Origin: Candidatus Gottesmanbacteria bacterium GW2011_GWA2_43_14
Lineage (GTDB): Bacteria; Patescibacteriota; Microgenomatia; 2-02-FULL-39-11
Direction of reading: 5' to 3'
DNA: 64,000 bases
Assembly (NCBI GenBank): GCA_000999095.1
Contig: LCFP01000004.1
Location: 13,429-77,428, forward strand
Shown here: positions 9,536 through 44,781 of the stretch, piece by piece
How positions within the stretch are numbered: position 1 is the stretch's first letter
How the letters are laid out: each line of letters opens with the position of its first letter
The notes under the pieces: generated by a model
Told to the model about the DNA's origin: nothing
The model's database searches: none
The model's input: the letters and a program-made list of their open reading frames with translations, nothing else
Made by a program: the position numbers and the translations under genes

Positions 9536-9541
9536 CTTACT

Positions 9542-10486: not shown

Positions 10487-10489
10487 AAA

Positions 10490-10792: not shown

Positions 10793-10797
10793 CCTGC

Positions 10798-12968: not shown

Positions 12969-12987
12969 CTTGCTGATTTAAATATTT

Positions 12988-25422: not shown

Positions 25423-25707
25423 TTAAGATTTATTTTTTTTTACGGAGTATACTTCAAGGGATTTTCTGACTTCATCAAGCGATTCCTTCGACTCCGTCTC
25501 AGACAGTTTTTGCATCAGTTCATGAATCAGGCGGGTTTTCACTTCTTCAATGTCATTGGCATTGTATTTTCTTTTCCCAGCTTTCACTTCATCCAGAATG
25601 TGAATTTTTTCCAATGCTAGTTGAGCATGATATTTTTCAGTAATAAATGACCAGGCTTTTTGTGATAACTCAAGCTTGTCCCCCTCACTGACATAATCAA
25701 TATTTTC
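25423..25707 (-). CDS. Small hypothetical protein. Start shortened to avoid an 80-nt overlap.
   Basis: ORF only; charged helical sequence. Confidence 0.25.
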   Translation of the reverse strand, partial: ENIDYVSEGDKLELSQKAWSFITEKYHAQLALEKIHILDEVKAGKRKYNANDIEEVKTRLIHELMQKLSETESKESLDEVRKSLEVYSVKKNKS

Positions 25708-28700: not shown

Positions 28701-30028
28701 TCGCTCAAATCCATCCAGCCGGCCAGAGTTTCAGGAGAATGGAAATAAAACCCGTTTGCTAGATCCGACCTAAAATCTTCGCACTTTTGCAGAAAAAGTC
28801 CGGCTTCATCACCTTTACCTTGAAAAAGTTGCCTGATAGGATTTTCCGTATCACCAATATCCCGCAGAGCCGGATCGTGAAGATTACCTGGATTAAATGA
28901 CAGAGTAAATCTTGTCGCTCTTTCGGGCTGGCCGCCTTCAGGAATTTTAAACCACCAGCTTCTGATTCTCCTTGTTGTAGCTCGATAAACAAAAGTTGCC
29001 AATAATCCGCCGCCTGCTCCAATCAGCGTATCTAACCTGCCCGCGATTGAAGGATCAACCATACTGCCTAATATACTGTTAGAGTATATATCGTTAAATG
29101 CACCGACATAGGCTCCTCCTCCAGTCATGATCGCAATTCCTGCCCAATCCCAAAAATCATCCCAGTTATTCAAGGCAACCCTTCTACCAATATCCTTATA
29201 TGCTGCAATTTTTCTCGGATCGGTCTCTTTTTCAACAAGTTTACTAATTTGTTGATCGGACATATCTATAGTTATATCCCTGGTACCACCAGTAGTAAGA
29301 TCATAGCCTAACTGATAGGAAATGCTTTTTTCCGCCTGTTCGGCAAACTGATAGACATACATGAGTTCATCGACAGTTTCGAAAATATGCTGGTCTTCTT
29401 TGTTTACATATGCCTGAAGCCTTTTCTCGATATCTTCATTGCTGACGCCATACCATTTATACTGCTGACGGATTTCCTGTATTAATGCTAACTTTTTATT
29501 ATTATCAGCCTCCGGTAATGATAAAACTGAACTGATTCTCTCTTTTCTTTTTTTAATGTCTTTCTCCAATCCTGGACTTCCTGTCCTCTTATACCTTATA
29601 AACTGTCTCTTCTTCTGATCTACTAATGCCTCCCAAGCCCCCGCCCAGTCTCCTTTTAATTCCTCCAGGAGCTTTAAATCATCCTGGTCCATTTTCAAAA
29701 GAATCAGATCCTGCGCTCTTTTATCCCAATAAGGAAATCTTTCCTTGATAACTTCGGCCATCTGACTTAAATCCTTGCCGGTATGTGGATTTTCCAGGAC
29801 TCCGTACAATGTTTCGAGCACATTGTAAGCGTTGTATTCCTGCGAAAGATTCAGCCTGGCTTTAGTATGGCCTGTTATTCCCAATTCCGGCTTGTTGGCA
29901 AGAGGATTAACACCACCGATTTCCCATTTACCATAAACTGAACTGCGAAGCTGTTTATCCTGACTTCCAGAATTATTAACTCTTTGTGCCGGTCCTGTTG
30001 GAGTGATGTCCGGAGCGGTATCTGACAT
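25697..30028 (-). CDS. Giant protein (1443 aa), coiled-coil rich with a glycine-rich hydrophobic segment. No recognisable enzymatic motif.
   Basis: Uninterrupted 4.3-kb ORF. The central part is heptad-like. A hydrophobic Gly-rich stretch lies at about residues 300-350. Confidence 0.55.
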   Translation of the reverse strand: MSDTAPDITPTGPAQRVNNSGSQDKQLRSSVYGKWEIGGVNPLANKPELGITGHTKARLNLSQEYNAYNVLETLYGVLENPHTGKDLSQMAEVIKERFPYWDKRAQDLILLKMDQDDLKLLEELKGDWAGAWEALVDQKKRQFIRYKRTGSPGLEKDIKKRKERISSVLSLPEADNNKKLALIQEIRQQYKWYGVSNEDIEKRLQAYVNKEDQHIFETVDELMYVYQFAEQAEKSISYQLGYDLTTGGTRDITIDMSDQQISKLVEKETDPRKIAAYKDIGRRVALNNWDDFWDWAGIAIMTGGGAYVGAFNDIYSNSILGSMVDPSIAGRLDTLIGAGGGLLATFVYRATTRRIRSWWFKIPEGGQPERATRFTLSFNPGNLHDPALRDIGDTENPIRQLFQGKGDEAGLFLQKCEDFRSDLANGFYFHSPETLAGWMDLSDRVLGEAAQGTEMRHRIRLAKKIQQILEQEYKREAGGHKELGELELEDRVKVVTKAFDTISQVEGGETLAPIIKKVMIARARGEPLEEGITSQLEKLAKDILSGARVLHPKESPITLENKEHELSTETARRERQTTSKESYTQLLTDITTQESTATSKKDAWDSAKTTKGKQSAGAKKATGEIGTIEAKIKTAEDRITFLKSHLGEKQATGLYTGIIGDQKQIGGELKAAKKIEAGTEKILAERSEELQRLKLIPLDLIPDTDSRKQEIIDKIAILDSDVDPRGAKAAENALTPLTERRESLEESYNSLGNEINNVKQEIAIFEKSGGTLDNLRDQIETKKNEIETARLEYKSEKDKLDALIRKRNQLLQEVFGFDVTIPGFTAPSTEKIGDIAKETADKVTKLEAELKKLRERKEAGEALVVSDEDKETERGLQKLVESEIFNSDKFNELINDIISGNIKIEDLAKTLSDEGYSLLLKRIFGIDALSQGVNGNYNLTSRILSKGRLAEAIMSVWNLENRATPNAFFAGDSAGLQAYQDSQSIKQEIAGLTEQVSNIEKGKADGWEDQVRDLRRQLNNIQIELNDSLSILYDTRLASLLAQDRVSTAQVISKTLIEISKDAIKGNPFNELLTVSTAGPKTETFTTDHGPISITEMNKNERTGALIERGPIIEENIGNSGISVNLGIDNTEPIGGLNLTLNLRKEQSTINLLPSDLQPNIPDELVYLAYGNEFRRKAATNPADFDQAVLDSITYTNRESAENAGLPPELINIIYGPNTADGKKDLADIITGLGAFNPAVLPYERESFIGASPELQALFYELTADKRRTVVEINNFISSLAVDRAAATAAGGYPPGVLELIYKADGTRKDPSEIQNIIFKRDPTQIADLNQLVNLFNHVDSTRNLTRNFLFEVAQGISMMNVSDRIRHLQNKFTDFNQDGFEVKFDNGELNVYFVDPVRGRLSSGFADILKISPTQHYGHIITGIVKSSQFSGRANQTAHGKY

Positions 30029-30105: not shown

Positions 30106-31962
30106 ATGGCCGGAGAACAACCAGCGCCGTCACAGGCAGAAATCGTTTCAAGAGGTAAACCTCCTAAACTAGTACCGACAGAAACGCCATTTGCATCTGA
30201 AGCTATCGGGGAAAATGGAAAAGTGACAGCAAAAAAGGAAGCTAAAGATACTGCTGTCATAAAAGCTCCAAAGCTGATTTCCCCTAACCCGGAAATACTT
30301 CAAGAAATTAGATCAAAAATCGGGGATATTCCGGAAGATGCGACCGTTGATAGTCTCATGGAAATTTTAACTAAAGAACATGGATGGGACAAGGATTCCG
30401 CCCCATTAGTCGAAGCGGCGTTTGAAGCTTTAAAACTGGAAAATAAGGGACAAAATCAAACGGAAACTCAAGAGGGAGACGACCAAACAGGGGGCAGTAC
30501 CTCAGCGCAAACTGCCGATGAAGATATAATTCAGGATGAAAAAGAACCGGGAGAAGGTAAAGAGTCTGAAAAGCCCCAGACCCAAAAAGTAAGCGATGTA
30601 GAATCCGACACGGAACAAAATCAACCTACAACAGAAGAGGAACAGCCTGAAGTGTCGGAAATACCATTGTCACAAAAAGTACATGAAGCCTGGCAAGGAG
30701 AAGATGGTGCAGTAATGCTTGTTACAAAAGCTATAGAAGAAGGAAAATTCGCATTAAAAGATTTGGAAGATGATTCTAGAAAGAAAATTACAGACGACTT
30801 GGGAATAATCGATACAACTGATTTAAGAGTTTATGAGGAATTCGAATTCCGAGAAAAACTCCAAAAGGCGATAAGTGAAGTCAATCTTGCTTATACAAAA
30901 GGAAAACAAAGAGAAGATAAAAACTATGAAGTTATTGGTGATGACGGGAGTACTAGAATAATCATTATTCAAGATCATATAGGGCCGATCATAGAAGCAA
31001 CCAGACAACTTGCCAACGAAACTGAAAAAAATGCAGAGAATCAAACAGTGCCCACTGAAAGAGCCAAAAAGGCTCAAGAAGATTTGGACGTACTTGAACC
31101 GATACTAAAACCGGATCCGAACGGCGGTTATTATTTTGATATACAAGAAGAAATAAAAGAGCCTCAGGAACCGCCGGAAATAACACTGCTTCGCCTGCAA
31201 AAAATGGTCGATGATGCCTTAAGATTTTTAGCTTTACCGGATCATATGGACAATGATAATAAAGTGATTGTTGCAGCGGCTATGGATGCATACGGACAAT
31301 TAGTACTTGTCTCTCAAACTGAAGCAGTGAAAGGAGGACTCGAACCGATATCAAATGCACCGCCCGAAGTCAGAATTCCGTTGGCCAGAATGGCATTAAA
31401 CACGTATCAGGAATTCAGGAGAAAAGTCACTACAAAAGGCAAAAAGGCCGAAGACAGCTATAGTGACTGGCAGGAAGTTCAAAAAGAAATTGAGATGCAA
31501 AAGGAAGGCAATGATGAGATAAAAAAATATTTTCGCCAATTTGTTGAAGATAAGGGCAGTTATTATGATGAACGTATTGATAAATTAATTGAAGAAGGAC
31601 ATTTTGTAGAAACGATGTCAGCTGTATTTACAGCTTCATATTTTGGAAAAATTAAAGACCGGTATAGAGCGCTAAAAGCTTCCCAGGTTTTGAAAAAATC
31701 AGGGCTAGCGAAAAAATTCAGTGAACAAAATAGTCCGTGGATTTCTCACTTTATGGAGGCTTTTTTTGGAAATTTAACCCGTCAGGAGGAAAAGAAAAAG
31801 TTGCTTAAGGATATCTTTGACAGATTGCCGATCAACAAATGGAGAGAGGCGGCCGGAACGGTCGGAGGCATGTTTATCATTACCGCGATAGGCAAATTTG
31901 ATGAATTAATGAATTTTGGTACCGAAACAGCTTCCGGTTCACGGAGCCCTCAAGCAGGTTAA
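30106..31962 (+). CDS. Acidic hypothetical protein (618 aa)
   Basis: Long ORF transcribed divergently from the giant protein. The N-terminal half is very acidic and low-complexity. Confidence 0.5.
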   Translation: MAGEQPAPSQAEIVSRGKPPKLVPTETPFASEAIGENGKVTAKKEAKDTAVIKAPKLISPNPEILQEIRSKIGDIPEDATVDSLMEILTKEHGWDKDSAPLVEAAFEALKLENKGQNQTETQEGDDQTGGSTSAQTADEDIIQDEKEPGEGKESEKPQTQKVSDVESDTEQNQPTTEEEQPEVSEIPLSQKVHEAWQGEDGAVMLVTKAIEEGKFALKDLEDDSRKKITDDLGIIDTTDLRVYEEFEFREKLQKAISEVNLAYTKGKQREDKNYEVIGDDGSTRIIIIQDHIGPIIEATRQLANETEKNAENQTVPTERAKKAQEDLDVLEPILKPDPNGGYYFDIQEEIKEPQEPPEITLLRLQKMVDDALRFLALPDHMDNDNKVIVAAAMDAYGQLVLVSQTEAVKGGLEPISNAPPEVRIPLARMALNTYQEFRRKVTTKGKKAEDSYSDWQEVQKEIEMQKEGNDEIKKYFRQFVEDKGSYYDERIDKLIEEGHFVETMSAVFTASYFGKIKDRYRALKASQVLKKSGLAKKFSEQNSPWISHFMEAFFGNLTRQEEKKKLLKDIFDRLPINKWREAAGTVGGMFIITAIGKFDELMNFGTETASGSRSPQAG

Positions 31963-31966
31963 AACC

Positions 31967-32656
31967 ATGTTGCAACAGTTGTTATTTTTCACAGTTTTAT
32001 TTTTCCTGATTTTTTTTATCTCCAAGTCAAACCTGAGCCAATTTCACCGACTGATTATAAAAATCATAGGCCATAAACATATCTCCGTCTGGATTCTTGC
32101 ATTAATATTTCTGCCGGGCACGGTCATTCATGAACTGTCACACTTTGTTGCAGCTACCATCCTGCATGTTCCGACAGGAAAAATGTCGATTTTCCCGACA
32201 ATTGAAAAAAACGGGGAGGCCCGGGCAGGTCACATCATGGTAGCCCGGACAGACCCCTTCCGCCTAAGCCTGATCGGTTTGGCACCGATGATGATCGGTC
32301 TGACTGTTGTCTATTTAACCGGACTATTCCTGATAGGGGATTGGCCGGGTATGCTGGCCGGGGGAAACCGGGTTAAATTTATAAGCGGTTTATTTTTATT
32401 GTTCCAGACAACCTCCGGCATGTTCTCGAGCAAAAGCGACCTTAAAAGTTTCCTCCTGGTTCTGCCTGTTATTCTGCTTTTTCTCCTAACCGGTTATTTT
32501 TCCGGCCTTTCAATCCAGGCAAACCAATCATTTATGGAAACCGTAACCGGTTTATTGACCCGGCTTAATTTTTATCTTCTAATAGCTAGCATTACCGATT
32601 ACTTTTTTTATTTATTCTTTCTGGCAGTAAATTCAGTTTTTGGAAACAGGCGTTAA
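31967..32656 (+). CDS. Polytopic membrane protein with an HExxH motif (putative zinc metalloprotease)
   Basis: HELSHFVAA sits within or next to a TM helix, and there are several further helices. Start chosen at MLQQLLF to avoid overlap. Confidence 0.4.
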
Positions 32657-34512
32657 ACACCCGTCTGTGTGGAAGTAGGGGACTCGGAGGGAGCAGGAGC
32701 AGTCGGCTGGTTGCCGTCAGGTTCCGAAGACTGGTTGAAATAATTTACTAAAGGGCTTTGGTCGCCGGCAGGCGGTACGGGCGGGGAAACCGCGGGTACG
32801 ATAGGTTGCGGGGGAGCGGGAACTACACCTGTTGGCTGTGGAATTATTCCGGGAACAGGTTCGACTGGCTTGTAAGCAGGAACGGGAGCCATAGGCTGTG
32901 ACGGAGCAGCCGGGGAGATGGACGTGCCGAGACATTTCGGACAGGTAGAAATTTGTGTGCCATGCGGCACTTGCCAGCTGTGACTGCAGGTTTGACAGAC
33001 ATAGCTGTCCATTTGCTGATTTGTTTTATCCTCGGGCTTAATCTGGTTGTCGGGATGTTCTGCTACAGCTTCTTCTTTATCAGCGGTTTTGACAGCTTCC
33101 TTGCGGGGCATCATTTTCTTTATGTCAAAAATGAGTTGCTTATTGTTGTAATCAACGCTGATAGTGTCACCAGCAGTTAAATCACCCTTGATAAGATATG
33201 AGGAAACCGGATTTTCAATCACTCTCTGGATGGTTCTTCTCAAAGGCCTGGCACCGTATATAGGGTCAAAACCGATTTCCGCCAGATAGAGTTTGGCATT
33301 AGGAGAAATGGACAGCCCAATACCCTGTTCTTCCAGGATTTTGGTCAGGGTATGCATTTGCAGATCAACGATTTCCAGCATGTGTTCCGGTCCCAGCGGC
33401 CTGAAAATGGTAACCTCATCAAAACGGTTCAATAGTTCCGGACGGAAGAATTTACGGAGTTCCACCATCAGCTTTTTGGAAAGTTTTTCAAATTGCTCTT
33501 CTTCCTTGGCATCCTTCTTGACCTCCGCTGACTTGACCGGCAAAAGCTCATCACTGGCTTCTATCGCCAGCGTAGTGAAGAGCTTCTCGATAGTTCCAGT
33601 CTGCCAGGTATGTTGAGTTGAGTCTTTCCTAATGTAATATTTGCCTTCAGCAATCACGACTTCCTCACCTGTCGGCTTGAAAAAATGCATCTCCCATTTC
33701 TTTATGGGAAATATTTCCTTCCTGCTTTGCCTCTGTTGCATCAAATTGGCATTTGAATCTTTCGTTTGTTTGGCAGACTGCGTTAAAGGTTGTTCTTCTA
33801 CAAGACTGTTGGCGAAAAATTCTTCCAGGGTACCGGTTGTCCAGTCTTTCACCTGTAGGTTTTGCCTGGTCCAAAAACGGTCTCCCAATGTGATAAATTC
33901 TTCATTTTTGAGATTAACGGCATGAGTATCCAGTTTGGCTGTCGGCAGCTGTTCTTTGGGATTGTCGGGTTTGGCATTATAGACAATATGGTCTTTCAGG
34001 TTTTCCAGAAGCTTCGAAGTATGCCATTCTTTGGCAATGGTTGAAGTCCTGAACCAGACAAAGTCATCACGGGTGATAGTTTCACTGCCATCAGCTCCGA
34101 TAACATGCGTATCAATATAGTTTTCCGGAAAACTGCCCGTGGGGGCATCGACTAGTTGACTGCCGGCAAAGTAATCCTTAAGCTGTGTTTTTTTCCACAA
34201 AGTGCCATCTTTATCTTTCTGCCAGACATTACTATCCAATGTGATTATCTCCCTGCCTGTCGGAGAGACAACATAGGTTTTGATCATTTTCGGTTTTTCG
34301 ACAATAGGCGATGAAGGTAAGTTTTTCTTTTCCCAATTAATCATTTCCTCCTGTATGATGCCGCTGCCGAGATTAGAGGTGCAGATCATGATCGTATTTT
34401 TAAAAGAAATGGTATGTCCTTTGTTATCTGTAAGCCGTCCGTCATCAAGAAGCTGGATCAGAATATTAAAGACGTCAGGATGTGCTTTTTCGATCTCATC
34501 GAGAAGTACCAC
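32653..34512 (-). CDS. ClpC-like AAA+ chaperone, C-terminal portion. It covers D2 from Walker B onward, a roughly 290-aa repeat insertion, a zinc ribbon and a Pro-rich tail. It is frameshifted relative to the upstream part.
   Basis: [29 protein letters not shown] (Walker B and sensor region), ...TSN, ...ELLNRFDE, ...GARPLRR. Four roughly 33-aa repeats (G.E.IT....W...K.WxTGTLE.F) are inserted between them. CxxC...CxxC lies near the C-terminus. Confidence 0.6.
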
Positions 34513-36557
34513 CCCTCGCTGCCGAAAAGAATCTCCGCCAAAGATTTGGCCAGCTCGGTTTTACCGACACCGGTTGGCCCCATGAAAATAAAGGAGCCTA
34601 TCGGCCTTTTATTGGACTTTAAGCCCGCCCTTCCGCGTCTGACAGCTTCAGAGACAGCGGAGACTGCTTCTTCCTGATCGATAAGTCTTTTATGAATTGT
34701 CTTTTCCAGTTCCATGAGCTTAAAGGCTTCGTTTTCAGTCAGCCGGGATACGGGAATATTGGTCCAGCGGGCAACAATCTCAGCAATAACTTCTTTATTG
34801 ACCGAGTTGGTGGTGGTGGATTTTTTTATCTGGTACTGTTCTTTCAGCAGATTCAGGTTCTGGACGGTATCCTCGGACTCTTTCTTCAGACTTTCCAGCC
34901 TGATTGTGTCTCCTATCTTTTCCGCTTCTTCTTTCTCGTGCTCCAGTTTCTTCAATTTTGCTTCACTGCTTTTTATTTCCTCAGGTAAAGATATCGCCGG
35001 CAGTCTGACGGCGGCTGCTGCTTCATCAATTAAATCAACAGCCTTATCCGGCAGAAACCTGTCGGCAATATATCTTTGGGAAAGCCTGACAGCTTCTTCG
35101 ATTGTGTCATCCGGAATTTTGACCCGGTGGAAAGCCTCATATTTGTCCCTGATGGCCAAAAGCATCTCAACGGCTGTTTCGGCTGTCGGTTCAGCAACCA
35201 TTATTGGCTGGAACCTTCTTTCCAAAGCCGGATCTTTCTCAATATATTTACGGTATTCCGTAACAGTGGTTGTACCCACCACCTGCAGTTCGCCCCGCGC
35301 TAAGGAAGGTTTAAGGATATTGGAAGCATCCATGGTACCTTCGCCCCCTGAGCCCGCCCCGACCATGTTGTGCAATTCGTCAATAAAAAGAATAACTGAT
35401 CCTGAAGCGGCCTTTACTTCCTTAATCAAATTCTTCAGTCTTTCCTCAAATTCACCTCTGTGCCTGGCTCCGGCGATCAAAGACATCAGATCAAGCTGCA
35501 GTATCTTTTTATTCAAAAGCGTCTCAGGCACGTCACTTCTGGCTATTCTTTGCGCCATGCCTTCGACAATGGCTGTCTTGCCGACTCCGGCGTCACCGAT
35601 TAGAACAGGATTATTTTTAGTTCTGCGTGACAGAATATGGATAACCCTCTCAATTTCCCAGCTCCGGCCGACAACAGGATCAAGTTCTCCCCGGGCAGCC
35701 TTGGCTGTCAGATCTTCAGTAAACTGTTCCAACGTAGTCTGTTTCTTGTCTTCTTTTTTCTTCTCCAGTTCTTTCTTGCCGGTAATTTTCTGGTTCAAAA
35801 CCTCCTGGGTCAGGTGGTTCTTGTTCAAAATTTGGGCAGCCATGCCTTCTCCTTCGTGAGACAAGGCCAAAAGGATGTGCTCAGGCGAGATAAATTCGTA
35901 ACCCAAGGACTTGGCTGTAGACAGGGACAGCTCAAGCACTCTTTTGATTCTGGGTGAAAATTGCGGTGTTCCGGGAAAATTACCTTTTTTGAAGCTTTTT
36001 TCCAAAGCCTGCTGCAAATCAGAGGGTACGGCTTTGCAATCGGAAATCAATTGGTAAATGGATGAATCGGAAAGAAGCGCCCAAAGAACATGCTCCGTAT
36101 CAATATGCTGGACTTTCAGCTCTTTAACTTTAGCAACTGCCTTCATCAGCACATCATTTGCCCTTTGGGTCATCCTGGATAAAACATCCATGCCTACCCT
36201 TTTACCCATATCAATTGAGGCGGCTGTTGTTTGCTGACTGTCGCTCTGATTGACAGGTGCAGGTGAAGCAGCCGGCGCTGTTGTTTGGGTGGAGACGGCT
36301 ACTGATGCAGATGATGGCGTTGCAGCCGGGGGATTGCCGATGCCTGAATAGGCTTGCCCCGATTGGATCGGGGCTTGTTGTCCGGCAGGCGGATTGCCGA
36401 TGCCTGAATAAGCCTGAGGTTGTTCGTTTTGTACTGTTTGGGAAGTATAGGAAACCGAAGCAGATTCCTCCTGCGTATTGGGGGAAACATCAGTCGGTTC
36501 ATTCTTATACTGGTCTTTTTTAAAGTATTTGGTAAACTTAAAGAGTTGACCTGGCAT
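34458..36557 (-). CDS. ClpC-like AAA+ chaperone, N-terminal portion. It covers the low-complexity extension, the Clp_N repeats, D1, a short M-domain and the D2 Walker A, then terminates after the frameshift.
   Basis: HVLWALLSD and HILLAL Clp_N repeats, [18 protein letters not shown] (D1 Walker A), [22 protein letters not shown] (D2 Walker A). The frame is lost just after this. About 45 aa expected between Walker A and Walker B of D2 are missing. Confidence 0.6.
36327..36416. repeat. Two-copy direct repeat (about 30-nt core, 60-nt period) inside the ClpC-like N-terminal extension
   Basis: GGATTGCCGATGCCTGAATA(G/A)GC occurs at 36331 and again at 36391. It encodes the duplicated peptide [11 protein letters not shown]. 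Confidence 0.7.
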
Positions 36558-36717
36558 TACCTCCTAGTAAACCATTTTTTCAAGGATGCTGTCAATCCCA
36601 ATTCTGACTTTCATATTGTTACTGTTTTCACAAAATTTAATCCAGTTTAGTAGTATTTTGAGCATTAATGCATTAGTTGCAAGGTAATTTTTCACATTTT
36701 AACCTAGATTTAGCCCT

Positions 36718-37998
36718 ATGGAACAACACTCTGTACCGCGTAATATTTCCAGCTTCCAATTTCACCTTATCGGTGACATGACGGTCCGCCAATTTGCTTA
36801 TCTTCTCGGAGGCTGCCTTATCGGTTTCGTCCTGTATAAACTGCTGCCTCTGCCGGGATTTTTAGCCATTCCTGCCGCCGGAGCGGCGGTTTTAACCGGT
36901 TTTGCTTTTGCCTTTGTCCCAATTCAGGAAAGGCCGCTGGACAAATGGATTGTCGCATTCATAAAAAGCATAACTTCTCCGACTCAATATCTCTGGCAAA
37001 AACAGGAAGAGATGCCGGACATTTTAGCTTATGCATACAACCGGCCTGTTAAAAGTTTGCCGCAAAACCATCTGGAGGCTCATGCGGATGCTAAAAAAAA
37101 ACTGGATAATTATTTGAACTCTTTGCCTAACCAACCCCACCAGCAAATAAATATCAGGGAAAAACATTATGTAGACAGTACTCTCAAACTCTTCAATACT
37201 ACAAACAGTTTTATTCCGGCAGCAGCTCCTTCATTTACCGCTCCGTCTTCCATACCGCCTGTTTCTGTTTCTGCGCTTCCGTTTACAACGGTGCTTCCGA
37301 TAACCCCTGTCGTCAAACCCGTACAGTCCCCTCCGCCCCCGGTAAAAGCGGATGTCCTCCATCCGCCTTTATCCGCAGCAGTTGCCCCGGTGAATCCTAA
37401 ACCGCTCCCTCCGGCAATACAAAAACCAATTGAAGTCAAAAAAGCGGCGCCCCCACAGCTTCAGCAAATACCGGTTGATCATTCGGAATTAACGGAGATA
37501 CGCCGGGAAAAAGAAAAACTGGAAAAAGAACTGGAAAGACTTAAAGCGGAGATAAGTAAATCTTCCAAAATAACCATCAAACCTGTTGAAGAAAAAGAGC
37601 CGGTCAAACCAACCATCAAGACGGTTACTCCCAAAAGCGCTGTCAATGAAATAGGCATTCCCAAACTTCCCCAGGCTCCAAATATCATTATGGGAGTCAT
37701 CAAAGACAGTAATAAGAGGCTCTTGCCCAATATTATTCTGACCATCAAGGATATCAAAGACAATCCGCACCGGGCTTTGAAAACCAACCGCTTGGGTCAA
37801 TTCTCAACCGCTACCCCCCTGCAAAACGGAACATATTTTGTCGAAGCTGAAGACCCGATGAAAAGATATACTTTTGACATTGCCGAGATCAATTTGTCCG
37901 GCAAGATCTTTCTGCCTATTGAAATTACGGCCAAGGGAGAAAAAGAAAAAATGCGTGAGCAGCTAAACAAAGAACTGTTCAGCAATCCGGGGATATAA
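36718..37998 (+). CDS. Membrane protein with N-terminal TM helices, a Pro-rich linker, a coiled coil and a C-terminal carboxypeptidase-regulatory-like beta-sandwich domain. Candidate T4SS-associated component.
   Basis: Two N-terminal hydrophobic helices. A PxP-rich stretch at about residues 170-250. EKEKLEKELERLKAEI coiled coil. The C-terminal IIMGVIKDSNKRLLPNIILTIKD...NGTYFVEA matches the CarboxypepD_reg pattern. It lies immediately upstream of the VirB4-like ORFs. Confidence 0.5.
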   Translation: MEQHSVPRNISSFQFHLIGDMTVRQFAYLLGGCLIGFVLYKLLPLPGFLAIPAAGAAVLTGFAFAFVPIQERPLDKWIVAFIKSITSPTQYLWQKQEEMPDILAYAYNRPVKSLPQNHLEAHADAKKKLDNYLNSLPNQPHQQINIREKHYVDSTLKLFNTTNSFIPAAAPSFTAPSSIPPVSVSALPFTTVLPITPVVKPVQSPPPPVKADVLHPPLSAAVAPVNPKPLPPAIQKPIEVKKAAPPQLQQIPVDHSELTEIRREKEKLEKELERLKAEISKSSKITIKPVEEKEPVKPTIKTVTPKSAVNEIGIPKLPQAPNIIMGVIKDSNKRLLPNIILTIKDIKDNPHRALKTNRLGQFSTATPLQNGTYFVEAEDPMKRYTFDIAEINLSGKIFLPIEITAKGEKEKMREQLNKELFSNPGI

Positions 37999-38022
37999 TC
38001 ATTTATAATAATCTATAGTATT

Positions 38023-38694
38023 ATGCAGCCGACTTCAGCACCGATCAGGGCGACTACCCAGGAATTTCTGGATATCGAGGACATCATCGATGATATTTTA
38101 ATCCTGAGAAGCGGCGGAGCGGCGGTTTTAATTGAAACAACTGCCGTCAATTTCGGCCTTTTGTCAGAAGAAGAGCAGGATGCCCTAATTTACGCTTATG
38201 CTTCGTTTTTAAATTCCCTGTCCTTTCCCCTTCAGGTGGTTATCCTGTCAAAGCGCATGGACATTTCTTCTTATATTGAATTCATTCTTCAGGAAGAAAC
38301 CAAACAGCCTAATCCTGTTATTAAAGACAGAATCAGAAATTACCGTGAATTCATACTTTCTACAATCAAAGAAAACCGTGTCCTGGAAAAAAAATTCTAT
38401 TTAGTCGTCCCTTTTTCTCCGTTGGAGTTGGGGATTAAAGAAGCATTTTCCGTATCCAACAAAAAGAAAAAGCTGCCTTTTACTAAAGACTACATCCTTT
38501 CCAGATCAAAAACATCACTTTTTCCCAAAAGAGACCACATCCTGAGACAGCTGGGCCGCATAGGACTTAAAGGCAGGCAGCTATCAACCCAGGAACTGGT
38601 GGAGCTTTTCTACAACCTATACAACCCGACCTTTACCGGTGAAAAACTGGGAGAAACAATAGGTTATACTAAACCGTTAGTTGAAGGGGTTTAA
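38023..38694 (+). CDS. VirB4/TcpF-type conjugative ATPase, N-terminal domain, present as a separate ORF
   Basis: TQEFLDIEDIIDDILILRSGGAAVLIETTAVNFGLLSEEEQDALIYAYASFLNSL resembles the N-terminus of Gram-positive VirB4 homologs. The ORF ends with tandem TAA TAA stops, 6 nt before the next ATG and in the same frame. Confidence 0.55.
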   Translation: MQPTSAPIRATTQEFLDIEDIIDDILILRSGGAAVLIETTAVNFGLLSEEEQDALIYAYASFLNSLSFPLQVVILSKRMDISSYIEFILQEETKQPNPVIKDRIRNYREFILSTIKENRVLEKKFYLVVPFSPLELGIKEAFSVSNKKKKLPFTKDYILSRSKTSLFPKRDHILRQLGRIGLKGRQLSTQELVELFYNLYNPTFTGEKLGETIGYTKPLVEGV

Positions 38695-38700
38695 TAACTT

Positions 38701-40644
38701 ATGCTGTCTTTTTTATCTAAAAAGAAAACTGTCAACATCAATCCAGTCCAGACACCGGTATCTCCGGTCCCACCCGCTCTACAGCCGGCAGGACAAACAC
38801 CCGGTGCATCTGCCGCTCAGCCTGTCCCGGTTCAAACTAACACCGCTTCTAAAGCTGCAGAAATAGCCAAAAACACCCAGCTTCAGGCAGCCAAAGAGAA
38901 AATAACCAAAGGCCTGGTCAATATAAAAGACATTATCGCTCCGTCTTTGGTTGAAGTTGATTTTGACCACATTAGAATCAACAACGTCTTTTACAGGACT
39001 TTGTTCGTGGCCGGTTATCCCCGTTATGTAGCTGCAAATTGGCTGCATCCGCTGCTTTCTTTCGACAAATCCCTTTTTATCTCGATGTATATTTATCCGA
39101 CGGAATCAAAAGTCATCCTGGAAGACCTCAAGAGAAAAATTGCCGAGATGGAAGCGACCATTCAGGTAGATATGAAAAGAGGCAAAGTCATTGACCCGTC
39201 AGTCCAGGTTTCGCTTGATGACGCCTTGGCCCTTCAGGCGCAATTGGCAAAAGGAGCCGAAAGATTTTATCAATTTTCCCTCTACATCACAATTCCTTCC
39301 GAAACAATTGAGGATTTAAACAGGTTTGCTAAAGAGGTTGAATCTACCTTGGGTTCACTTTTGATTATCCCCAAACATGCCACTTTATCACAGGAAGAAG
39401 GATTTAAATCAACCCTGCCGATGTCCATTGACAAGCTTGACGTCACCAGAAATATGGACACTACCTCCCTGGCGACTACCTTTCCCTTTACCACCGCTTC
39501 CTTATCCGCCAACGAAGGCATCCTCTATGGAATCAATGAACATGACGGCAGTCTGGTTATTTTCAACCGTTTCAGTCTGGAAAACAGCAATAGCGTTATC
39601 TTCGGAAAATCCGGTGCCGGCAAATCTTTTCTGGTCAAATTGGAAGTCATGCGTACCCTGATGTTCGGGGCTGATGTTTTTGTCATTGATCCGGAAGGGG
39701 AATACAAGGACATAACCAGGGCTTTGGGTGGTGATCTTCTTGACTTCTCATTCAATTCACCCATCAAAATCAATCCTTTCGACCTGTCAGGCATCGTCAC
39801 TGAAGGTGAAAATGAACTCGGCTTAAAAATCCTCTCCATTCACGGACTGATGAGAGTTATCATGGGTGAACTTTCTCCGACTGAAGACGCCCTGCTGGAT
39901 AAAGCATTGGTCCTTACATATAAACAGAAAGGGATAACGCCGGACCCGGAAACCCAGAAAAAAGAACCGCCTTTGATGGAAGATTTGTACAAGGTGCTTT
40001 TGGGAATGGAAGAGGAAAATGCCCGACACCTGGCAGAACGGCTGGAGAAATTTGTTAAAGGATCACTGGCGGGCATCTTTAATCAGCAGTCAAATGTCTC
40101 CCTGAAAAACCAGCTGACGGTTTTCAACATCAAGGAACTGGAGGCGGAACTGCGCCCGATGGCCATATTTTCCATCCTGGATTTTATCTGGACAAAAATC
40201 AAAAGGGATGTCAAAAAAAGATTGCTGATTGTAGATGAAGCATGGTACCTGATGAAACATCCGGATTCCGCCACCTTCCTCTACGGCATAGCCAAAAGAG
40301 CCCGGAAGTATTATCTCGGCGTAACCACCATCACCCAGGATGTCGAAGACTTCCTCTCAACCGACCACGGCAAAGCCATTATTACCAATTCGAGCCTGCA
40401 GATTCTCCTCAAACAATCAACGGCAGCCATCGATAAGCTGGCAGAGGTTTTTTATCTTTCAAGCGGCGAAAAGCACTTCCTGCTCTCGGCCGGGGTAGGG
40501 GAAGGACTGTTCTTTGCCGGAGCTTCACACGCTGCCGTCCAATTTATTGCATCTTCTCAGGAATATCAGCTGGCGACCAGCAAACCTCAGGAAGTAAGGC
40601 AGGATCCCTCCTTTCCCAACGTGCCTAAAATTCCCAGTGTATAA
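38701..40644 (+). CDS. VirB4/TraE/TrsE-type type IV secretion ATPase, C-terminal ATPase portion
   Basis: Walker A FGKSGAGKSF, Walker B RLLIVDEAWYL, and the conserved KYYLGVTTITQDVEDF region. Confidence 0.75.
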   Translation: MLSFLSKKKTVNINPVQTPVSPVPPALQPAGQTPGASAAQPVPVQTNTASKAAEIAKNTQLQAAKEKITKGLVNIKDIIAPSLVEVDFDHIRINNVFYRTLFVAGYPRYVAANWLHPLLSFDKSLFISMYIYPTESKVILEDLKRKIAEMEATIQVDMKRGKVIDPSVQVSLDDALALQAQLAKGAERFYQFSLYITIPSETIEDLNRFAKEVESTLGSLLIIPKHATLSQEEGFKSTLPMSIDKLDVTRNMDTTSLATTFPFTTASLSANEGILYGINEHDGSLVIFNRFSLENSNSVIFGKSGAGKSFLVKLEVMRTLMFGADVFVIDPEGEYKDITRALGGDLLDFSFNSPIKINPFDLSGIVTEGENELGLKILSIHGLMRVIMGELSPTEDALLDKALVLTYKQKGITPDPETQKKEPPLMEDLYKVLLGMEEENARHLAERLEKFVKGSLAGIFNQQSNVSLKNQLTVFNIKELEAELRPMAIFSILDFIWTKIKRDVKKRLLIVDEAWYLMKHPDSATFLYGIAKRARKYYLGVTTITQDVEDFLSTDHGKAIITNSSLQILLKQSTAAIDKLAEVFYLSSGEKHFLLSAGVGEGLFFAGASHAAVQFIASSQEYQLATSKPQEVRQDPSFPNVPKIPSV

Positions 40645-40653
40645 TAAAAAGGT

Positions 40654-42087
40654 ATGTCCCAAAAACCAGCTCCTTCCCGAGAAATAGAGGCAGAAGGAGA
40701 ACAACAGGGATTTGACCTCGACCAGCAGGATACCGCTACCTGGGCATCACTGGTTCAGCTGACCGGAGCCATCGGTGCCGGAGGATTTCAGTACGTTGAC
40801 GAAACAAGAAAAGCCTTTAATACCGTTAATGATGAGAATATCCATAATAAATTATTAAACCTTGAAAACCCTCAAAAACTCCAAAAAGTCATTTATGACT
40901 ATCAGCTTATCGGGCGTAGGCTGAAAACTCCGGAAAAAGAAAGCACAAAATTTGCCTTCTATAATTTCAAAGGAGAAGTCACCAGAGACAGGTTCGATCG
41001 GGTTGGCCAGGCAATCATAGTTGCCAGACAAATCCATCAATATACCAATAAAGTTGAGACATCGATAAGATTTGATAAAACAATTAAAGCTTATGGTTTC
41101 AGTGAAGAGACTGTCCAACAATTACGCAAAAACCTGACTGAATGGCAGGAAAAAAATCCGGGAGCGGAAATAGATAATATTCTTTCCAACCAATCAAAGA
41201 AACTATACGGGGAACAATGCGCAAAAGATGGAAAAAAAGCTGATAAAAATATTGAAACCGCATTAAAAAAAGACTTAACAACAGCCAGGAAAGAAGCGTT
41301 AATTAAGGTAGATGAATTGGGGGTAAGAGATAGAGCTGAAAGCGTCATCAAAAACGACTTTTTAAATAATCAAAATGCTCCATTAAAAGAAGAACAAATT
41401 AAAACCAGGCTGGAGTATGTTTTTGAAGGAAAAATCCCTGAAGAAAAATTGGCAGGAGTCGTGGAAAAAACGGTTGAATCTGCCAGGACTTTTCAGGAAC
41501 CCGCAAGCAAACCCTTACCCCAGGTAGGAAAATCTCCTTTGCCCCGGTCTTTTTCTTTTCCGCAAATCAGACTTTCGACGATAAAAATTTCCATCAGGTT
41601 ACCGAATTTGGTCGGATTGGGAAATTTGGGCGGGTCCTTACTCAGACAGGGAGCGACAAAACTGGCCGGGAAGTTGGCCGGAAAAGCCGTAGCACAAACA
41701 GCCTTGGGAGCGGCAACGGGAGGAGTGTATAACGCCATCAGTCTCCTAGCTTCATTTTTCGGTATTAATTTGGATGACATAGCTATAAAGGTTGCCTTAT
41801 GGGCCGGAATCCTGGCAGTTGGGGTCCCGGCAGCTATAGTCGTCTTTTTTATCTTTAGCAGCAGTAATTCATCCCGCTTGTTTGATCCCCAAGCTGTAAC
41901 GCAGGAAGAGGTTTTTTACCAAAATTCCAGACATTTTGCCTGGAAAAGGTTTGAGGAGAAAAATCTCAAGATTTTAGATACTTCTGCTTCCTGGATTGCT
42001 TTTGAAAAAGAGCGTCTGGATTTGGACAACCGGCTGGTCGAACGACTATCCCTGGACCCGGACCGGCATAATGATGTGGAGAAATGA
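40654..42087 (+). CDS. Hypothetical protein with a C-terminal TM cluster, possibly a T4SS-associated membrane component
   Basis: 477-aa ORF starting 10 nt after the VirB4 stop. Hydrophobic helices lie at about residues 370-420. Its 3' end overlaps dnaN by 42 nt. Confidence 0.4.
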   Translation: MSQKPAPSREIEAEGEQQGFDLDQQDTATWASLVQLTGAIGAGGFQYVDETRKAFNTVNDENIHNKLLNLENPQKLQKVIYDYQLIGRRLKTPEKESTKFAFYNFKGEVTRDRFDRVGQAIIVARQIHQYTNKVETSIRFDKTIKAYGFSEETVQQLRKNLTEWQEKNPGAEIDNILSNQSKKLYGEQCAKDGKKADKNIETALKKDLTTARKEALIKVDELGVRDRAESVIKNDFLNNQNAPLKEEQIKTRLEYVFEGKIPEEKLAGVVEKTVESARTFQEPASKPLPQVGKSPLPRSFSFPQIRLSTIKISIRLPNLVGLGNLGGSLLRQGATKLAGKLAGKAVAQTALGAATGGVYNAISLLASFFGINLDDIAIKVALWAGILAVGVPAAIVVFFIFSSSNSSRLFDPQAVTQEEVFYQNSRHFAWKRFEEKNLKILDTSASWIAFEKERLDLDNRLVERLSLDPDRHNDVEK

Positions 42088-43155
42088 GATTTTATCGCTT
42101 TTGGGTTTAAAAACTCCCGGTGATAAGGGGCCCGACGATTCAAAAACCAGTTCTTTTTCCGGAAAATTACTTAGAAGATCCAGAAGGAAACGGAAATTAA
42201 ACGCCACTTCGCTTTCTTCCCCTTCGACCTTGGCTTCTACATAATCGCTTTCTTCGCCCACCTGAGGAGTGTTGGCCGACAACCTAAGTCCTTCCTTCTC
42301 AATTTTCATCTTAATGATATTGGCGGCACCGCGGGCAAAGATGGAAGTAGTTTTAACTGCCTGGGTAAATAATTCCTTATCCAGTATCACTCTGGTTTTA
42401 AAACTGTCGGGTATTATTTTTTCAACATTAGGGAATTCTCCGTCAATCAGACGGCTGTAAATTTTAGTATCAGGCATTGAAAATACCACCTGATTTTTAT
42501 TTTCAATGATTGAGATATCCAAATCCGCAGCTTTTAATTCCTGGGCTATTCTGACAACTTCAAAAAGTGATGATGCGGGCAAAACAACATCGAGAAGCTC
42601 GTTCTTTGAAGGAATCGCCACTTCTTCTTTGGACAACCTGTAACCGTCGGTGGCCGACATGGACAATATGCCGTCGTCAATTTTTGTTCTGACTCCGGTT
42701 AAAATCGGCCTTCCTTCATCAATGGAAGCGGCAAAAGCCGTCCTAATGATTGAATCCTTGACTTTGGCAAATGGCAGTTTTCGGTCAAATGATAAAGGCT
42801 GCGGGAAAGTAGGGAAGTCGGCAGGATTACCGATGGCAAAAGAAGCCCTGGTGGTATCGGTTTTGACTTCCAGGTTTTTGTCGGTTGCCGTTATCTCCAG
42901 CTTATCCGCTCCAAGTGAGTTTATAAATTCCGTAAGCAATTTTCCCGGTATGGCCACCTCTCCTTCTTTTTCTATTTTGGCTGAGGTTTGGTAAATGATC
43001 CCGAGTTCCAGATTGGTAGAAAGAAACTCCAATTGGTTTTTAGCACCCCGAAGTAAAATATGGGAAAGAATCGGCAGCTGCGGTCTTAGGGAAATTCCTT
43101 TTCCGACAATTGATAAAGCTCTTACAATATTCTCTTTTAAAATTAATATTTTCAT
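42046..43155 (-). CDS. dnaN: DNA polymerase III beta sliding clamp
   Basis: The N-terminus MKILILKENIVRALSIVGKGISLRPQLPILSHILL is typical DnaN. Three-domain length of 369 aa, downstream of dnaA. Confidence 0.85.
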   Translation of the reverse strand: MKILILKENIVRALSIVGKGISLRPQLPILSHILLRGAKNQLEFLSTNLELGIIYQTSAKIEKEGEVAIPGKLLTEFINSLGADKLEITATDKNLEVKTDTTRASFAIGNPADFPTFPQPLSFDRKLPFAKVKDSIIRTAFAASIDEGRPILTGVRTKIDDGILSMSATDGYRLSKEEVAIPSKNELLDVVLPASSLFEVVRIAQELKAADLDISIIENKNQVVFSMPDTKIYSRLIDGEFPNVEKIIPDSFKTRVILDKELFTQAVKTTSIFARGAANIIKMKIEKEGLRLSANTPQVGEESDYVEAKVEGEESEVAFNFRFLLDLLSNFPEKELVFESSGPLSPGVFKPKSDKISFLHIIMPVRVQG

Positions 43156-43354: not shown

Positions 43355-44695
43355 TTATCCAGAAAACCGGTTTTTTATCCCCAAGATATCACCACGGATT
43401 TTTTCGTCCTGACCAATAAGGTCGCTGATTTTGCGGACTCCGTGAAGTATGGTTGTATGGTCCCGCCCGCCCAAAAGATCACCGATTTGTTCAAGACCTA
43501 TGCCGATTTCCGTTCTTAATAAATAATAAAGAATTTGTCTGGGCAAGCTATAAATTTTATCCCTTTTAGAACTTTTTAATTGGGAAACTTTCAACTGATA
43601 GAAAGCGGCTACAATTTTAACTACTTCTTCCGGTTGCATATTTTTTTCCAGAACGGGAATTCTCAGGGTTTTTCCCAATACATTTTTTACCAGCTCGGCA
43701 TCAAGCGGAATATCTTTGGTTTGCGCCTCACTGATAATCCTGATAAGGAGACCCTCGAGTTTTCTCGTGTTTTCAACGTTGGCTGAAAGTAGCTTGGCGG
43801 CATCCATCGGCAAATCTACCTGCCGCTGTTTAGCTTTTATCAGTAAAATGGCTGTTCTAAGTTCAAAATCAGGGTTGCCGATATCGATGGTCAGACCGCC
43901 CTCAAAACGGGACCTGAGCCTTTCTTCCAACTTGTCAATTTCCTCCGGTTGCCTGTCGCTGGTTATGATAATCTGTTTTTTTGCCTGGTATACAGCGTTG
44001 AACGTATGAAAAAATTCTTCCTGGATGGAATATTTACCGGCGATAAACTGGACGTCATCGATCAGCAGGATATCGGTCTGGCGGTATTTTTTTTTGAAAG
44101 AGGTGGTAGTTTTATTGGAGATAGCCTCGATTATTTCGTTGGTGAATTCTTCACCGGTACAGAAAATAATTTTAATTTTAGGATTTTTGGAAAGTACTGA
44201 ATGTCCGATGGCCTGCATCAGATGGGTTTTGCCCACTCCAGTGCCGCCGTAGAGAAAGAGGGGATTATAGGAAAAACCCGGATTTTTGGAAACGGCGGTG
44301 GCTGCCGCATATGCCATTTGATTGGTTGAGGAAACGGCAAAATTGGCGAAAGTATAGTCTTTGTTCAGTCTGCCCAACTCCGGCAGGAAATTGGCCGGAG
44401 TAACTCTCATGGAAAATAGAGGTCCGTCGATGTGGTCGCCGTTGGTCTTTTTTTTGGCGGCTTTGAAAGACAAAGTTAAATCTTTCTGGGTGTATTGTTT
44501 TAAGGTGTCCCTGATTAAGACCTGGTAGCGTTTCTCGATCAGGTTTATCAACATCGGGTTATTGCAATTAATAACTGCTTCTTTATCATTGAGGGCTTCC
44601 AAAGAGGTTTGGGAGATCAGGGTTTGGAATACTACTTTGCTGACTTGAAGCTGAAGGTCAGCTAAAATAGTTTGCCAAAGACTAACGTTGTCCAT
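43355..44695 (-). CDS. dnaA: Chromosomal replication initiator protein DnaA. Start chosen at MDNVSLWQ.
   Basis: AAA+ Walker A GGTGVGKTHL, Walker B LLIDDVQF, and a C-terminal DNA-binding helix-turn-helix (DHTTILHGVRKI). A perfect DnaA box TTATCCACA lies at 44719-44727, just upstream. Confidence 0.9.
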   Translation of the reverse strand: MDNVSLWQTILADLQLQVSKVVFQTLISQTSLEALNDKEAVINCNNPMLINLIEKRYQVLIRDTLKQYTQKDLTLSFKAAKKKTNGDHIDGPLFSMRVTPANFLPELGRLNKDYTFANFAVSSTNQMAYAAATAVSKNPGFSYNPLFLYGGTGVGKTHLMQAIGHSVLSKNPKIKIIFCTGEEFTNEIIEAISNKTTTSFKKKYRQTDILLIDDVQFIAGKYSIQEEFFHTFNAVYQAKKQIIITSDRQPEEIDKLEERLRSRFEGGLTIDIGNPDFELRTAILLIKAKQRQVDLPMDAAKLLSANVENTRKLEGLLIRIISEAQTKDIPLDAELVKNVLGKTLRIPVLEKNMQPEEVVKIVAAFYQLKVSQLKSSKRDKIYSLPRQILYYLLRTEIGIGLEQIGDLLGGRDHTTILHGVRKISDLIGQDEKIRGDILGIKNRFSG

Positions 44696-44781
44696 AGGAT
44701 TTCCACATCGTAAGAAAGTTATCCACAATTGTCAACGAGCTAGAAATGATATTTTCTATTATTTGTGATATCATTTACAAA

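Follow-up and report, generated by a model that had tools for sequence, protein, structure and literature searches.

A probable core operon of a Patescibacteria-type type IV secretion system, with an extended VirB3 protein, next to dnaN and dnaA in Candidatus Gottesmanbacteria

The Patescibacteria type IV secretion system (T4SS), described in a 2025 review (PMC12857230) as a newcomer to the T4SS superfamily, was found by transposon sequencing (Tn-seq) to be essential in the Saccharibacterium Southlakia, where pilin genes but no recognisable coupling or relaxase proteins were present (Wang et al. 2023; PMC10633639). The essential homologous system is SEML1_0006-0019 of Ca. Southlakia epibionticum, and is needed for epibiotic growth (PMC10633639, PMC12857230). 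A survey of 3,035 Patescibacteria genomes using CONJScan profiles with a coverage threshold, and MOBscan for the assignment of relaxases (Quinonero-Coronel et al. 2025; PMC12102498), identified a VirB4 clade related to mating-pair formation (MPF) type MPF-FATA, with adjacent TrsD and PrgI/VirB3. The survey also reported that virB4 lies near dnaA/dnaN, that VirB2-like pilin arrays are abundant in Microgenomatia, that relaxases are rare and that the type IV coupling protein (T4CP) is usually encoded far from virB4. Here, a 64 kb stretch (referred to as the window) of the chromosome of Candidatus Gottesmanbacteria bacterium GW2011_GWA2_43_14 (GenBank assembly GCA_000999095.1, 1.65 Mb) was analysed, and the four genes at positions 36718-42087 were found very probably to constitute the membrane-ATPase core operon of a Patescibacteria-type T4SS, related to the MPF-FATA systems of monoderms and adjacent to the predicted replication origin. 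The system is already published, and the VirB4, TrsD and pilins of this genome are already catalogued.

An earlier note on this DNA had placed four open reading frames (ORFs) here, and all of them proved to be real, intact and tightly packed on the + strand, with intergenic gaps of 24, 6 and 9 bp. The location beside dnaN and dnaA given in that note was likewise correct, the operon being convergent with dnaN.

36718-37998, + strand, extended VirB3/PrgI protein, 426 aa (KKS97908.1)
38023-38694, + strand, TrsD-like protein, a free-standing VirB4 N-terminal domain, 223 aa (KKS97909.1)
38701-40644, + strand, VirB4/TrsE-type ATPase, 647 aa (KKS97910.1)
40654-42087, + strand, orphan membrane protein, 477 aa (KKS97911.1)
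42046-43155, - strand, dnaN, its 3' end overlapped by the ORF for the 477-aa protein
43355-44728, - strand, dnaA, beyond dnaN

The locus resembles the T4SS of the Patescibacteria clade in having VirB4 with an adjacent TrsD, a PrgI/VirB3 protein, arrays of PF18895 pilins and a site at dnaA/dnaN, and no relaxase was found. Seven rows of Table S3 in PMC12102498 refer to this genome, namely two T4CPs, three VirB2 proteins (KKS97890.1, KKS97891.1 and KKS97932.1), TrsD (KKS97909.1) and VirB4 (KKS97910.1). There are no rows for VirB3, VirB6, VirB8 or VirB1 in this genome, and KKS97908.1 and KKS97911.1 are unlisted. The locus differs from the picture drawn in the survey in that VirB3 has 426 aa and a large C-terminal extension, and from sister lineages in that a ClpB gene stands where they have a T4CP gene; VirB6, VirB8 and VirB1 were not recognisable by sequence.

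On sequence grounds, the second and third genes together are one VirB4, made up of a separate TrsD-like N-terminal domain and an ATPase whose Walker A (GKSGAGKS) and Walker B (LLIVDEAW) motifs are intact, as read in the translation. The 647-aa protein matched the NCBIfam model conju_CD1110 at 401.2 bits, against a cutoff of 325, over model positions 170-730 of 752, and further matches were to the Pfam domains P-loop_TraG, AAA_10 and DUF87. Its closest plasmid relatives, with up to 37% identity, are VirB4 proteins of Bacillota and Actinomycetota. The N-terminal region absent from it lies in the 223-aa protein encoded only 6 bp upstream, which matches NCBIfam VirB4 models at their N-terminal positions. 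The 223-aa protein matched the NCBIfam TrsD model NF041427 (E 7.5e-7) at 29 bits, below the cutoff of 200, and pSK41 TrsD by BLASTP (E 3e-5, residues 24-201). Its hhalign probability against the ORF that precedes VirB4 in Pontibacillus was 99.3%, its orthologues carry PF26593 (TraC-like), and its entry in Table S3 of PMC12102498, FATA_TrsD, shows 100.0 under profile-profile. This TrsD identity had been missed in the earlier note. Both ORFs use the same frame, with TAA TAA and one codon before the ATG between them; the double stop, together with the retention of the split in relatives, rules out a pseudogene or an alternative genetic code as its cause. As orthologous loci hold the same two genes, this is the TrsD/TrsE arrangement of the pGO1/pSK41/pIP501 subclass.

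In some relatives VirB4 is far longer, at 1190-1320 aa (L029:12023-15727 and L055:11784-15746, and by length also loci L031, L033 and L085). The extra length in L029 and L055, which were scanned, comes from an intein at the P-loop region that contains a LAGLIDADG homing endonuclease. Inteins at this position would fit a conserved, functionally important protein.

The protein encoded by the first gene is, by sequence homology, a VirB3/PrgI homologue, an identity that the earlier note had overlooked and that emerged from a Pfam scan. Residues 6-90 form a PrgI (VirB3) domain (PF12666, 39.8 bits against a cutoff of 27, E 6.9e-10), and PF12666 is present in nearly all homologues. VirB3 is defined by two transmembrane (TM) helices, a C-terminal helix, a gene next to virB4 and a small size of 10-15 kDa with no more than short extensions (PMC12857230). 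Here, two TM helices followed by a helix were found, and the gene is directly upstream of TrsD and VirB4; however, the protein is not small, as it has 426 aa and extends ~340 aa past the hairpin, and this extension is kept across 371 species. The PrgI domain may have been overlooked in the survey because of the CONJScan coverage threshold.

An AlphaFold2 model built with 60 homologues agreed with the domain order given in the earlier note, which had described TM helices, a Pro-rich spacer, a coiled coil and a beta-sandwich. The model contains a TM hairpin at 23-66 (helices 23-42 and 47-66; predicted local distance difference test, pLDDT, >90), a juxtamembrane helix at 73-86 and then a conserved helical pair at 116-159. 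These are followed by a disordered Pro-rich linker of ~85 aa at 163-250, a single long helix (coiled coil) at 255-282 and a beta-sandwich at 300-405 (pLDDT ~95) with a CnaB/transthyretin-like fold. The top matches in the fold search were pilins and adhesins of Gram-positive bacteria and the S-layer protein SlaB of archaea, and no structures of VirB8 (NTF2-like) or VirB10 were among these. The 426-aa protein had no Pfam match to TrbI/VirB10, and only its Pro-rich spacer recalls VirB10. UniRef entry A0A0G1GGH3 names this protein 'Minus agglutinin', which is probably spurious and derived from the Pro-rich low-complexity linker.

The proposal in the earlier note that this protein is a scaffold substitute like VirB8 or VirB10 did not hold, as its N-terminus is VirB3/PrgI and the fold of its C-terminal domain is neither NTF2-like, as in VirB8, nor a VirB10 barrel. 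It is somewhat doubtful that the C-terminal extension is an extracytoplasmic, wall-spanning scaffold replacing VirB8/VirB10. There are exactly two TM helices, and both termini of canonical VirB3 are cytoplasmic (PMC12857230). Across the family, Lys and Arg residues number 2.1 before the first TM helix, 0 in the loop and 4.2 after the second, and an invariant PIQERPLDKW motif follows the second TM helix; both favour the cytoplasmic side, where the motif may make contact with VirB4 or TrsD. A Pro-rich spacer and a CnaB/transthyretin-like fold are, contrary to the charge bias, typical for extracytoplasmic proteins. From VirB3 homology and charge bias, a cytoplasmic location of the extension is therefore modestly favoured.

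A tentative proposal, to which we would give rather less than even weight, is that Microgenomatia have remodelled a tiny VirB3 into a protein of 390-500 aa in which the extension is a functional T4SS element, a stalk or a dock, and that together with the 477-aa protein it marks a Gottesmanbacteria-specific variant. The extension could be a wall-spanning stalk in place of an undetectable VirB8 or, assuming a canonical VirB3 topology, a tethered dock in the cytoplasm below the VirB4 barrel. The dock, if true, would have taken over partner or substrate recruitment where no coupling protein adjoins. A long VirB3 with a tethered beta-sandwich is not described in Wang et al. 2023, in PMC12102498 or in the review PMC12857230, and is a modest addition to them.

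The fourth gene encodes a protein with a charged helical N-terminal region of ~330 aa lacking a signal peptide, a short Pro-containing stretch, weaker Gly/Ala-rich amphipathic helices, one strong TM helix at ~382-400 (by hydropathy) and a tail of ~75 aa with two WxxFE motifs. The C-terminal TM cluster attributed to it earlier was thus correct as to the C-terminal TM helix, but there is one strong TM helix after the weaker amphipathic helices and not a cluster. Homology searches mark the protein as a lineage-restricted orphan. An exhaustive HMMER scan of 1.84 billion proteins recovered relatives from only 82 cluster representatives, no Pfam domain was found in 71 members of the family, and PDB sequence searches returned nothing real. 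An AlphaFold2 model made with 5 sequences was poor (pLDDT 45), and the best Foldseek match (E 0.6) is uninformative at that quality. A homologue is located directly after VirB4 in 14-17 related loci.

Several identities were tried for the 477-aa protein and rejected. VirB6/TrbL/PrgH would need four to six or more TM helices, and this protein, like its orthologues, has one strong TM helix. For a VirB1-like hydrolase an M23, CHAP, SLT or lysozyme domain would be expected, and none is present. Comparison with the ~720-aa M23 proteins of sister lineages by jackhmmer and profile-profile alignment aligned the TM helix only. As it has no hydrolase domain, the 477-aa protein is probably a lineage-specific membrane adaptor in the position that follows VirB4.

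The earlier note had confined the module to 36718-42087, which turned out to be too narrow; pilin arrays and a VirB6 candidate were found ~20 kb away on both sides.

15653-15961, + strand, VirB2-like T4SS pilin 1, 102 aa, three hydrophobic segments (PF18895, E 2.9e-8, above cutoff)
16197-16742, + strand, VirB2-like T4SS pilin 2, 181-aa ORF (PF18895, E 5.6e-9; NCBIfam Mbov_0395, E 4.4e-6)
16743-17093, + strand, VirB2-like T4SS pilin 3, 116 aa (PF18895, E 2.6e-4, below cutoff; Mbov_0395, E 9.5e-4)
58412-62350, + strand, large orphan protein, 1312 aa, TM helix at 1274-1292, no Pfam match
62356-63810, - strand, polytopic membrane protein, VirB6 candidate, 484 aa, with a signal-like N-terminus and ~8 TM helices by hydropathy
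63845-64000, - strand, further VirB2-like pilin (PF18895), 3' part, cut by the window end

Pilin 3 is in tandem with pilin 2, for which the true start is probably internal to the 181-aa ORF, and the three-pilin array lies ~20 kb upstream of the operon. At or past the right edge, two PF18895 pilin genes (L008 9628-9966 and 9261-9623) stand directly upstream of the gene for the 484-aa protein; their coordinates were mapped onto the window from that gene, and 10 kb beyond the right edge was inspected. At least five pilin genes are therefore in the window or at its edge. Table S3 of PMC12102498 has one VirB2 row at CDS #948 and two VirB2 rows near virB4, and by gene count the edge pilin is probably KKS97932.1.

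For the 484-aa family, no Pfam match was found in 31 members, and PDB and NCBIfam searches likewise gave nothing real. Local hhalign comparison with TrsL of pSK41 gave a probability of 15.7% (P 0.0017), a comparison that is underpowered as the template is a single sequence. The same holds for all hhalign comparisons with pSK41, pCF10 and Pontibacillus proteins, so that negatives carry little weight; as a yardstick, the PrgI family scored only 4% against pCF10 PrgI despite belonging to the same family. One such negative concerns the 477-aa protein, which showed no similarity to its positional counterpart, TrsF of pSK41. Because the layout found across the class sets the 484-aa protein beside the pilins and the VirB4 core, this polytopic protein within the T4SS cluster is a candidate VirB6 analogue. 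The gene for the 1312-aa protein is convergent with that for the 484-aa protein, and a convergent gene for a protein of 1100-1350 aa follows the 484-aa homologue in most related loci, with sequence homologues in L028 and L089. On gene neighbourhood only, the 1312-aa protein may be a cell-surface partner.

To examine the distribution of the operon, each GTDB species was represented by a single genome. Full-length relatives of the extended VirB3 are encoded by 371 species, which span Gottesman-, Woese-, Beckwith-, Davies- and Collierbacteria, all in the class Microgenomatia, and 80 loci were retrieved from such species for comparison. PrgI, TrsD and VirB4 are contiguous in 66 of the 69 loci with sufficient sequence, and among the 54 loci whose sequence runs >=9.5 kb downstream, 51 have dnaN within 10 kb. 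Between the pilin array and PrgI-TrsD-VirB4, 35/80 loci have a homologue of the 484-aa protein, and pilin arrays were found in 27/80. The common layout begins with 3-10 pilin genes, the 484-aa homologue, the convergent gene for a ~1200-aa protein and a gap. The PrgI-fusion, TrsD and VirB4 follow, then a protein of 470-950 aa with TM helices in its last third, and finally small proteins with an N-terminal TM helix, with dnaN and dnaA on the opposite strand. In the Gottesmanbacteria subclade the pilin and VirB6-candidate units have been displaced ~20 kb to either side of the operon, and the subclade of the window is a rearranged, reduced version of the class-wide cluster.

In sister lineages (~20 loci; e.g. 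L032:13951-16119 (+)) the gene after VirB4 encodes a protein of ~720-800 aa with a TM helix near residue 500. The L032 protein, which was scanned, ends in a Peptidase_M23 domain and is for that reason VirB1-like. At least one small protein with an N-terminal TM helix is encoded after the M23 gene in these lineages, and is a candidate VirB8. Many of the public metagenome-assembled genome (MAG) records that carry the locus (L014, L018, L021, L023, L054, L063 and others) are titled 'uncultured Gammaproteobacteria', 'Pseudomonadales' or 'Bathyarchaeia archaeon', and these titles appear to be wrong.

The setting of the operon in the window is that of the chromosome. The cumulative GC skew of the window has its minimum at ~38-44 kb, and a replication origin there would therefore fit; Pfam scans identified rnpA, yidC and jag on the far side of dnaN-dnaA. 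The G+C content of the module is 0.44-0.45 against a window mean of ~0.43, and is equal to that of its flanks. In a promoter and terminator scan of the operon the counts were those expected from shuffled sequence, and a single promoter-like site (36627-36656) was found in the intergenic region upstream.

This distribution bears on whether the module could belong to, or be left over from, an integrated conjugative or mobilisable element with its relaxase, coupling protein and integrase outside the window, a reading that we consider most improbable. It would account for the closeness of VirB4 to the conjugative MPF-FATA ATPases of Bacillota and Actinomycetota plasmids and for a gene order like that of pSK41, and two T4CP homologues are encoded elsewhere in the genome (Table S3, PMC12102498). 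A XerC/D-like recombinase gene is also found ~8 kb left of the window; however, it sits among housekeeping cell-wall genes. The same dnaN-dnaA site in 51/54 species with enough flank, and a G+C content like that of the flanks, are not the patchy distribution and atypical composition of such an element. The contiguity of the operon in 66/69 loci and the retention of dnaN in 51/54 indicate instead that it has been inherited vertically.

The gene content leads to the same result. Pfam scans of 59 greedy window ORFs, each >=79 aa, detected no relaxase, VirD4/T4CP or integrase, in agreement with the earlier note, and when a related T4CP was used as a tblastn query against the window only the P-loop of VirB4 was matched. 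Relaxase and T4CP queries from pSK41 and pCF10 found nothing by phmmer in the 80 related loci (0/80, with two relaxases as queries). Genome-wide, there is no relaxase row for GCA_000999095.1 in Table S3 of PMC12102498, for which MOBscan was used, and the two VirD4-type homologues listed (KKS95630.1 and KKS97591.1) are both far from virB4. With a fixed site across the class and no relaxase, the remnant of a conjugative element is effectively excluded. The suggestion in the earlier note of a chromosomal, non-conjugative T4SS of the Patescibacteria type is thus upheld by the synteny comparison it had called for, which found the operon fixed beside dnaN-dnaA across Microgenomatia, by the flank-like G+C content, by a window free of relaxase and integrase genes and by the published survey.

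The description of the module as lacking a coupling protein, in contrast, is true of the window but neither of the genome, with its two T4CP homologues, nor of the class. A later search found a gene for a ~730-aa ATPase beside the operon in 19/80 related loci, divergent from the PrgI-fusion gene and exactly at the position occupied by ClpB in the window (e.g. L032:7638-9833 (-)). As it carries TrwB_AAD_bind and TraG-D_C domains, and T4SS-DNA_transf in L028, which was scanned, this ATPase is a T4CP homologue; no N-terminal TM helix was noted in it.

Three systems outside Patescibacteria are close enough for comparison. The order trsC-trsD-trsE-trsF in pSK41, encoding a two-TM protein, TrsD, VirB4 and a membrane protein (TrsF, 426 aa), is like that of the operon, and a pilin-like TrsB is encoded upstream, as pilins are here. 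However, pSK41, which with pGO1 (Trs) and pIP501 (Tra) belongs to the pGO1 subclass of MPF-FATA, is a conjugative plasmid and has a relaxase, VirD4 (TrsK), a CHAP hydrolase, a topoisomerase and a TrbL-type VirB6, none of which was found in the window, and its TrsC has 135 aa compared with 426 aa for VirB3 here. With the Prg/Pcf system of pCF10 the window shares an N-terminus in the PrgI Pfam family and a VirB4 in the CD1110 family of PrgJ, and PrgK follows PrgJ there as a peptidoglycan hydrolase likewise follows VirB4 in sister Microgenomatia. Unlike the operon, pCF10 has a single full-length VirB4 (PrgJ) and a PrgI of 117 aa; it also encodes a relaxase, the coupling protein PcfC and LPXTG adhesins, and VirB2-like pilins are absent from it.

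The best match to VirB4 outside the Candidate Phyla Radiation (CPR), with 37% identity, was located in an 898-kb replicon of Pontibacillus sp. ALD_SL1 (NZ_CP062975.1, 352-361 kb) that has been typed as non-mobilizable. There, an Mbov_0395-type pilin, a small ORF, a TrsD-like ORF and VirB4 are found in this order, and an M23 metalloendopeptidase follows. The Pontibacillus locus differs in its Bacillota host, in a VirB3-position ORF of 116 aa without an extension and in not being at the replication origin.

The gene adjacent to the operon on its left, encoding ClpB (32653-36557 (-)), is split in the window into two ORFs in different frames, with the junction near 34515-34560. Compared with the single 1344-aa ORF of close relative L020, ~31 codons are missing, with the frame shifted, from the part of the second ATPase domain that separates its Walker A and Walker B motifs. 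Either the gene is a true pseudogene, or the 2015 MAG was misassembled here. The ClpB proteins of this lineage have 1290-1443 aa (L020:5806-9840 (-); window 32653-34512 (-)) with a C-terminal extension, and contain an insertion of ~330 aa between the AAA_2 and D2-small domains in which no Pfam match and no intein domain was detected. Upstream of ClpB are three genes for proteins without Pfam domains, of 1443 aa (25697-30028 (-)), 618 aa (30106-31962 (+)) and 246 aa (31916-32656 (+)), the last with five TM helices. All three hold this position in close relatives, and the 246-aa protein is seen again close to PrgI-VirB4 in Beckwithbacteria-like loci that are less closely related. NCBIfam and PDB sequence searches with the 246-, 618- and 1443-aa proteins, and with the 1312-aa protein, returned nothing real.

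Two other regions of the window were identifiable. A complete-looking mevalonate pathway operon (7584-14136 (-)) encodes HMG-CoA reductase, an HMG-CoA synthase-like protein, a thiolase with an OB-fold partner and three GHMP kinases or decarboxylases, followed by undecaprenyl-diphosphate synthase. A homologue of the RuBisCO large subunit (462 aa; 49748-51136 (+)) is encoded among NadD, NadE, inositol monophosphatase and sugar kinases. It is interpreted as a putative form II/III type, which is common in CPR nucleotide salvage.

In the mechanism that we favour, the hairpin and juxtamembrane helix of VirB3 would hold TrsD and the VirB4 oligomer at the cytoplasmic membrane, an anchoring role for VirB3 that follows the summary in PMC12857230 of work on R388 and Gram-positive systems, and the long C-terminal extension would be an added module. 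ATP hydrolysis would drive the extraction and polymerisation of VirB2-like pilins and possibly also substrate passage, through a translocon that includes the 484-aa VirB6 candidate. The 477-aa protein would occupy the slot after VirB4, which in sister lineages holds a TM-anchored M23 peptidase (VirB1-like). The resulting machine would serve host-cell contact or exploitation, rather than conjugation.

Import, export and a pilus alone cannot be separated by sequence. A machine working mainly in the import of DNA or other host macromolecules, like ComB of H. pylori or archaeal Ced, for an organism unable to make nucleotides, has been proposed for Saccharibacteria (PMC11665869) and would be in keeping with the lack of a relaxase and of a coupling protein beside the operon. 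The RuBisCO of form II/III type may also fit a lifestyle of nucleotide salvage, the link to lifestyle being inferred. VirB4 does match CedB weakly (E 4.8e-16, 58 bits), but this score is far under the family cutoff of 700 and reflects the shared P-loop fold only, and components specific to Ced or ComB were not found. In Southlakia, comEC-dependent competence is dispensable whereas the T4SS is essential (PMC12857230), although import through the T4SS is not thereby shown. For these reasons import is considered unlikely to be the main function here.

An operon that powers only a VirB2-type pilus for adhesion to hosts or surfaces, with no substrate translocated, seems similarly improbable. Adhesion had also been raised in the earlier note, and the pilin genes of the window, the arrays of 3-10 pilin genes upstream in relatives and the absence of an adjacent T4CP or a hydrolase domain from the subclade of the window would all agree with it. 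T4CPs, however, usually serve substrate recruitment, and sister lineages keep an adjacent T4CP-like ATPase while this genome has its two distant homologues. Furthermore, according to the review PMC12857230, a pilus of a Patescibacteria T4SS has yet to be observed.

Several points weigh against the assignment of the operon to a working T4SS core. The function proposed is deduced from homology and neighbourhood, and no member of the Microgenomatia is in culture. In the window, VirB8 and VirB1 were not detected, nor was a VirB6 that sequence could verify, and no known T4SS part could be related to the 477-aa protein. The T4CP gene beside the operon and the M23 domain, both present in sister lineages, have been lost from the subclade of the window, and the machine may therefore be reduced here or work differently. 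The neighbouring ClpB gene is broken in the assembly, and poor assembly or gene decay in the region is possible, though the four T4SS ORFs are intact despite it.

The T4SS of Patescibacteria is of current interest as the only T4SS reported to be essential for the growth of its bearer. The locus described here indicates that a Microgenomatia VirB3 exists, with a conserved extension of ~340 aa, and its omission from the survey's table for this genome may help to explain why VirB3 seemed poorly associated with VirB4 in that class. VirB6 has been reported to be scarce in the class, and for it the 484-aa family offers a concrete candidate. The neighbours of the operon vary within the class: the upstream slot is taken by a T4CP or by ClpB, and the downstream slot by an M23 hydrolase or by an orphan protein. 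As incremental leads for structural work on monoderm and CPR T4SS, the extended VirB3 and the VirB6 candidate add to a known system and do not make a new one.

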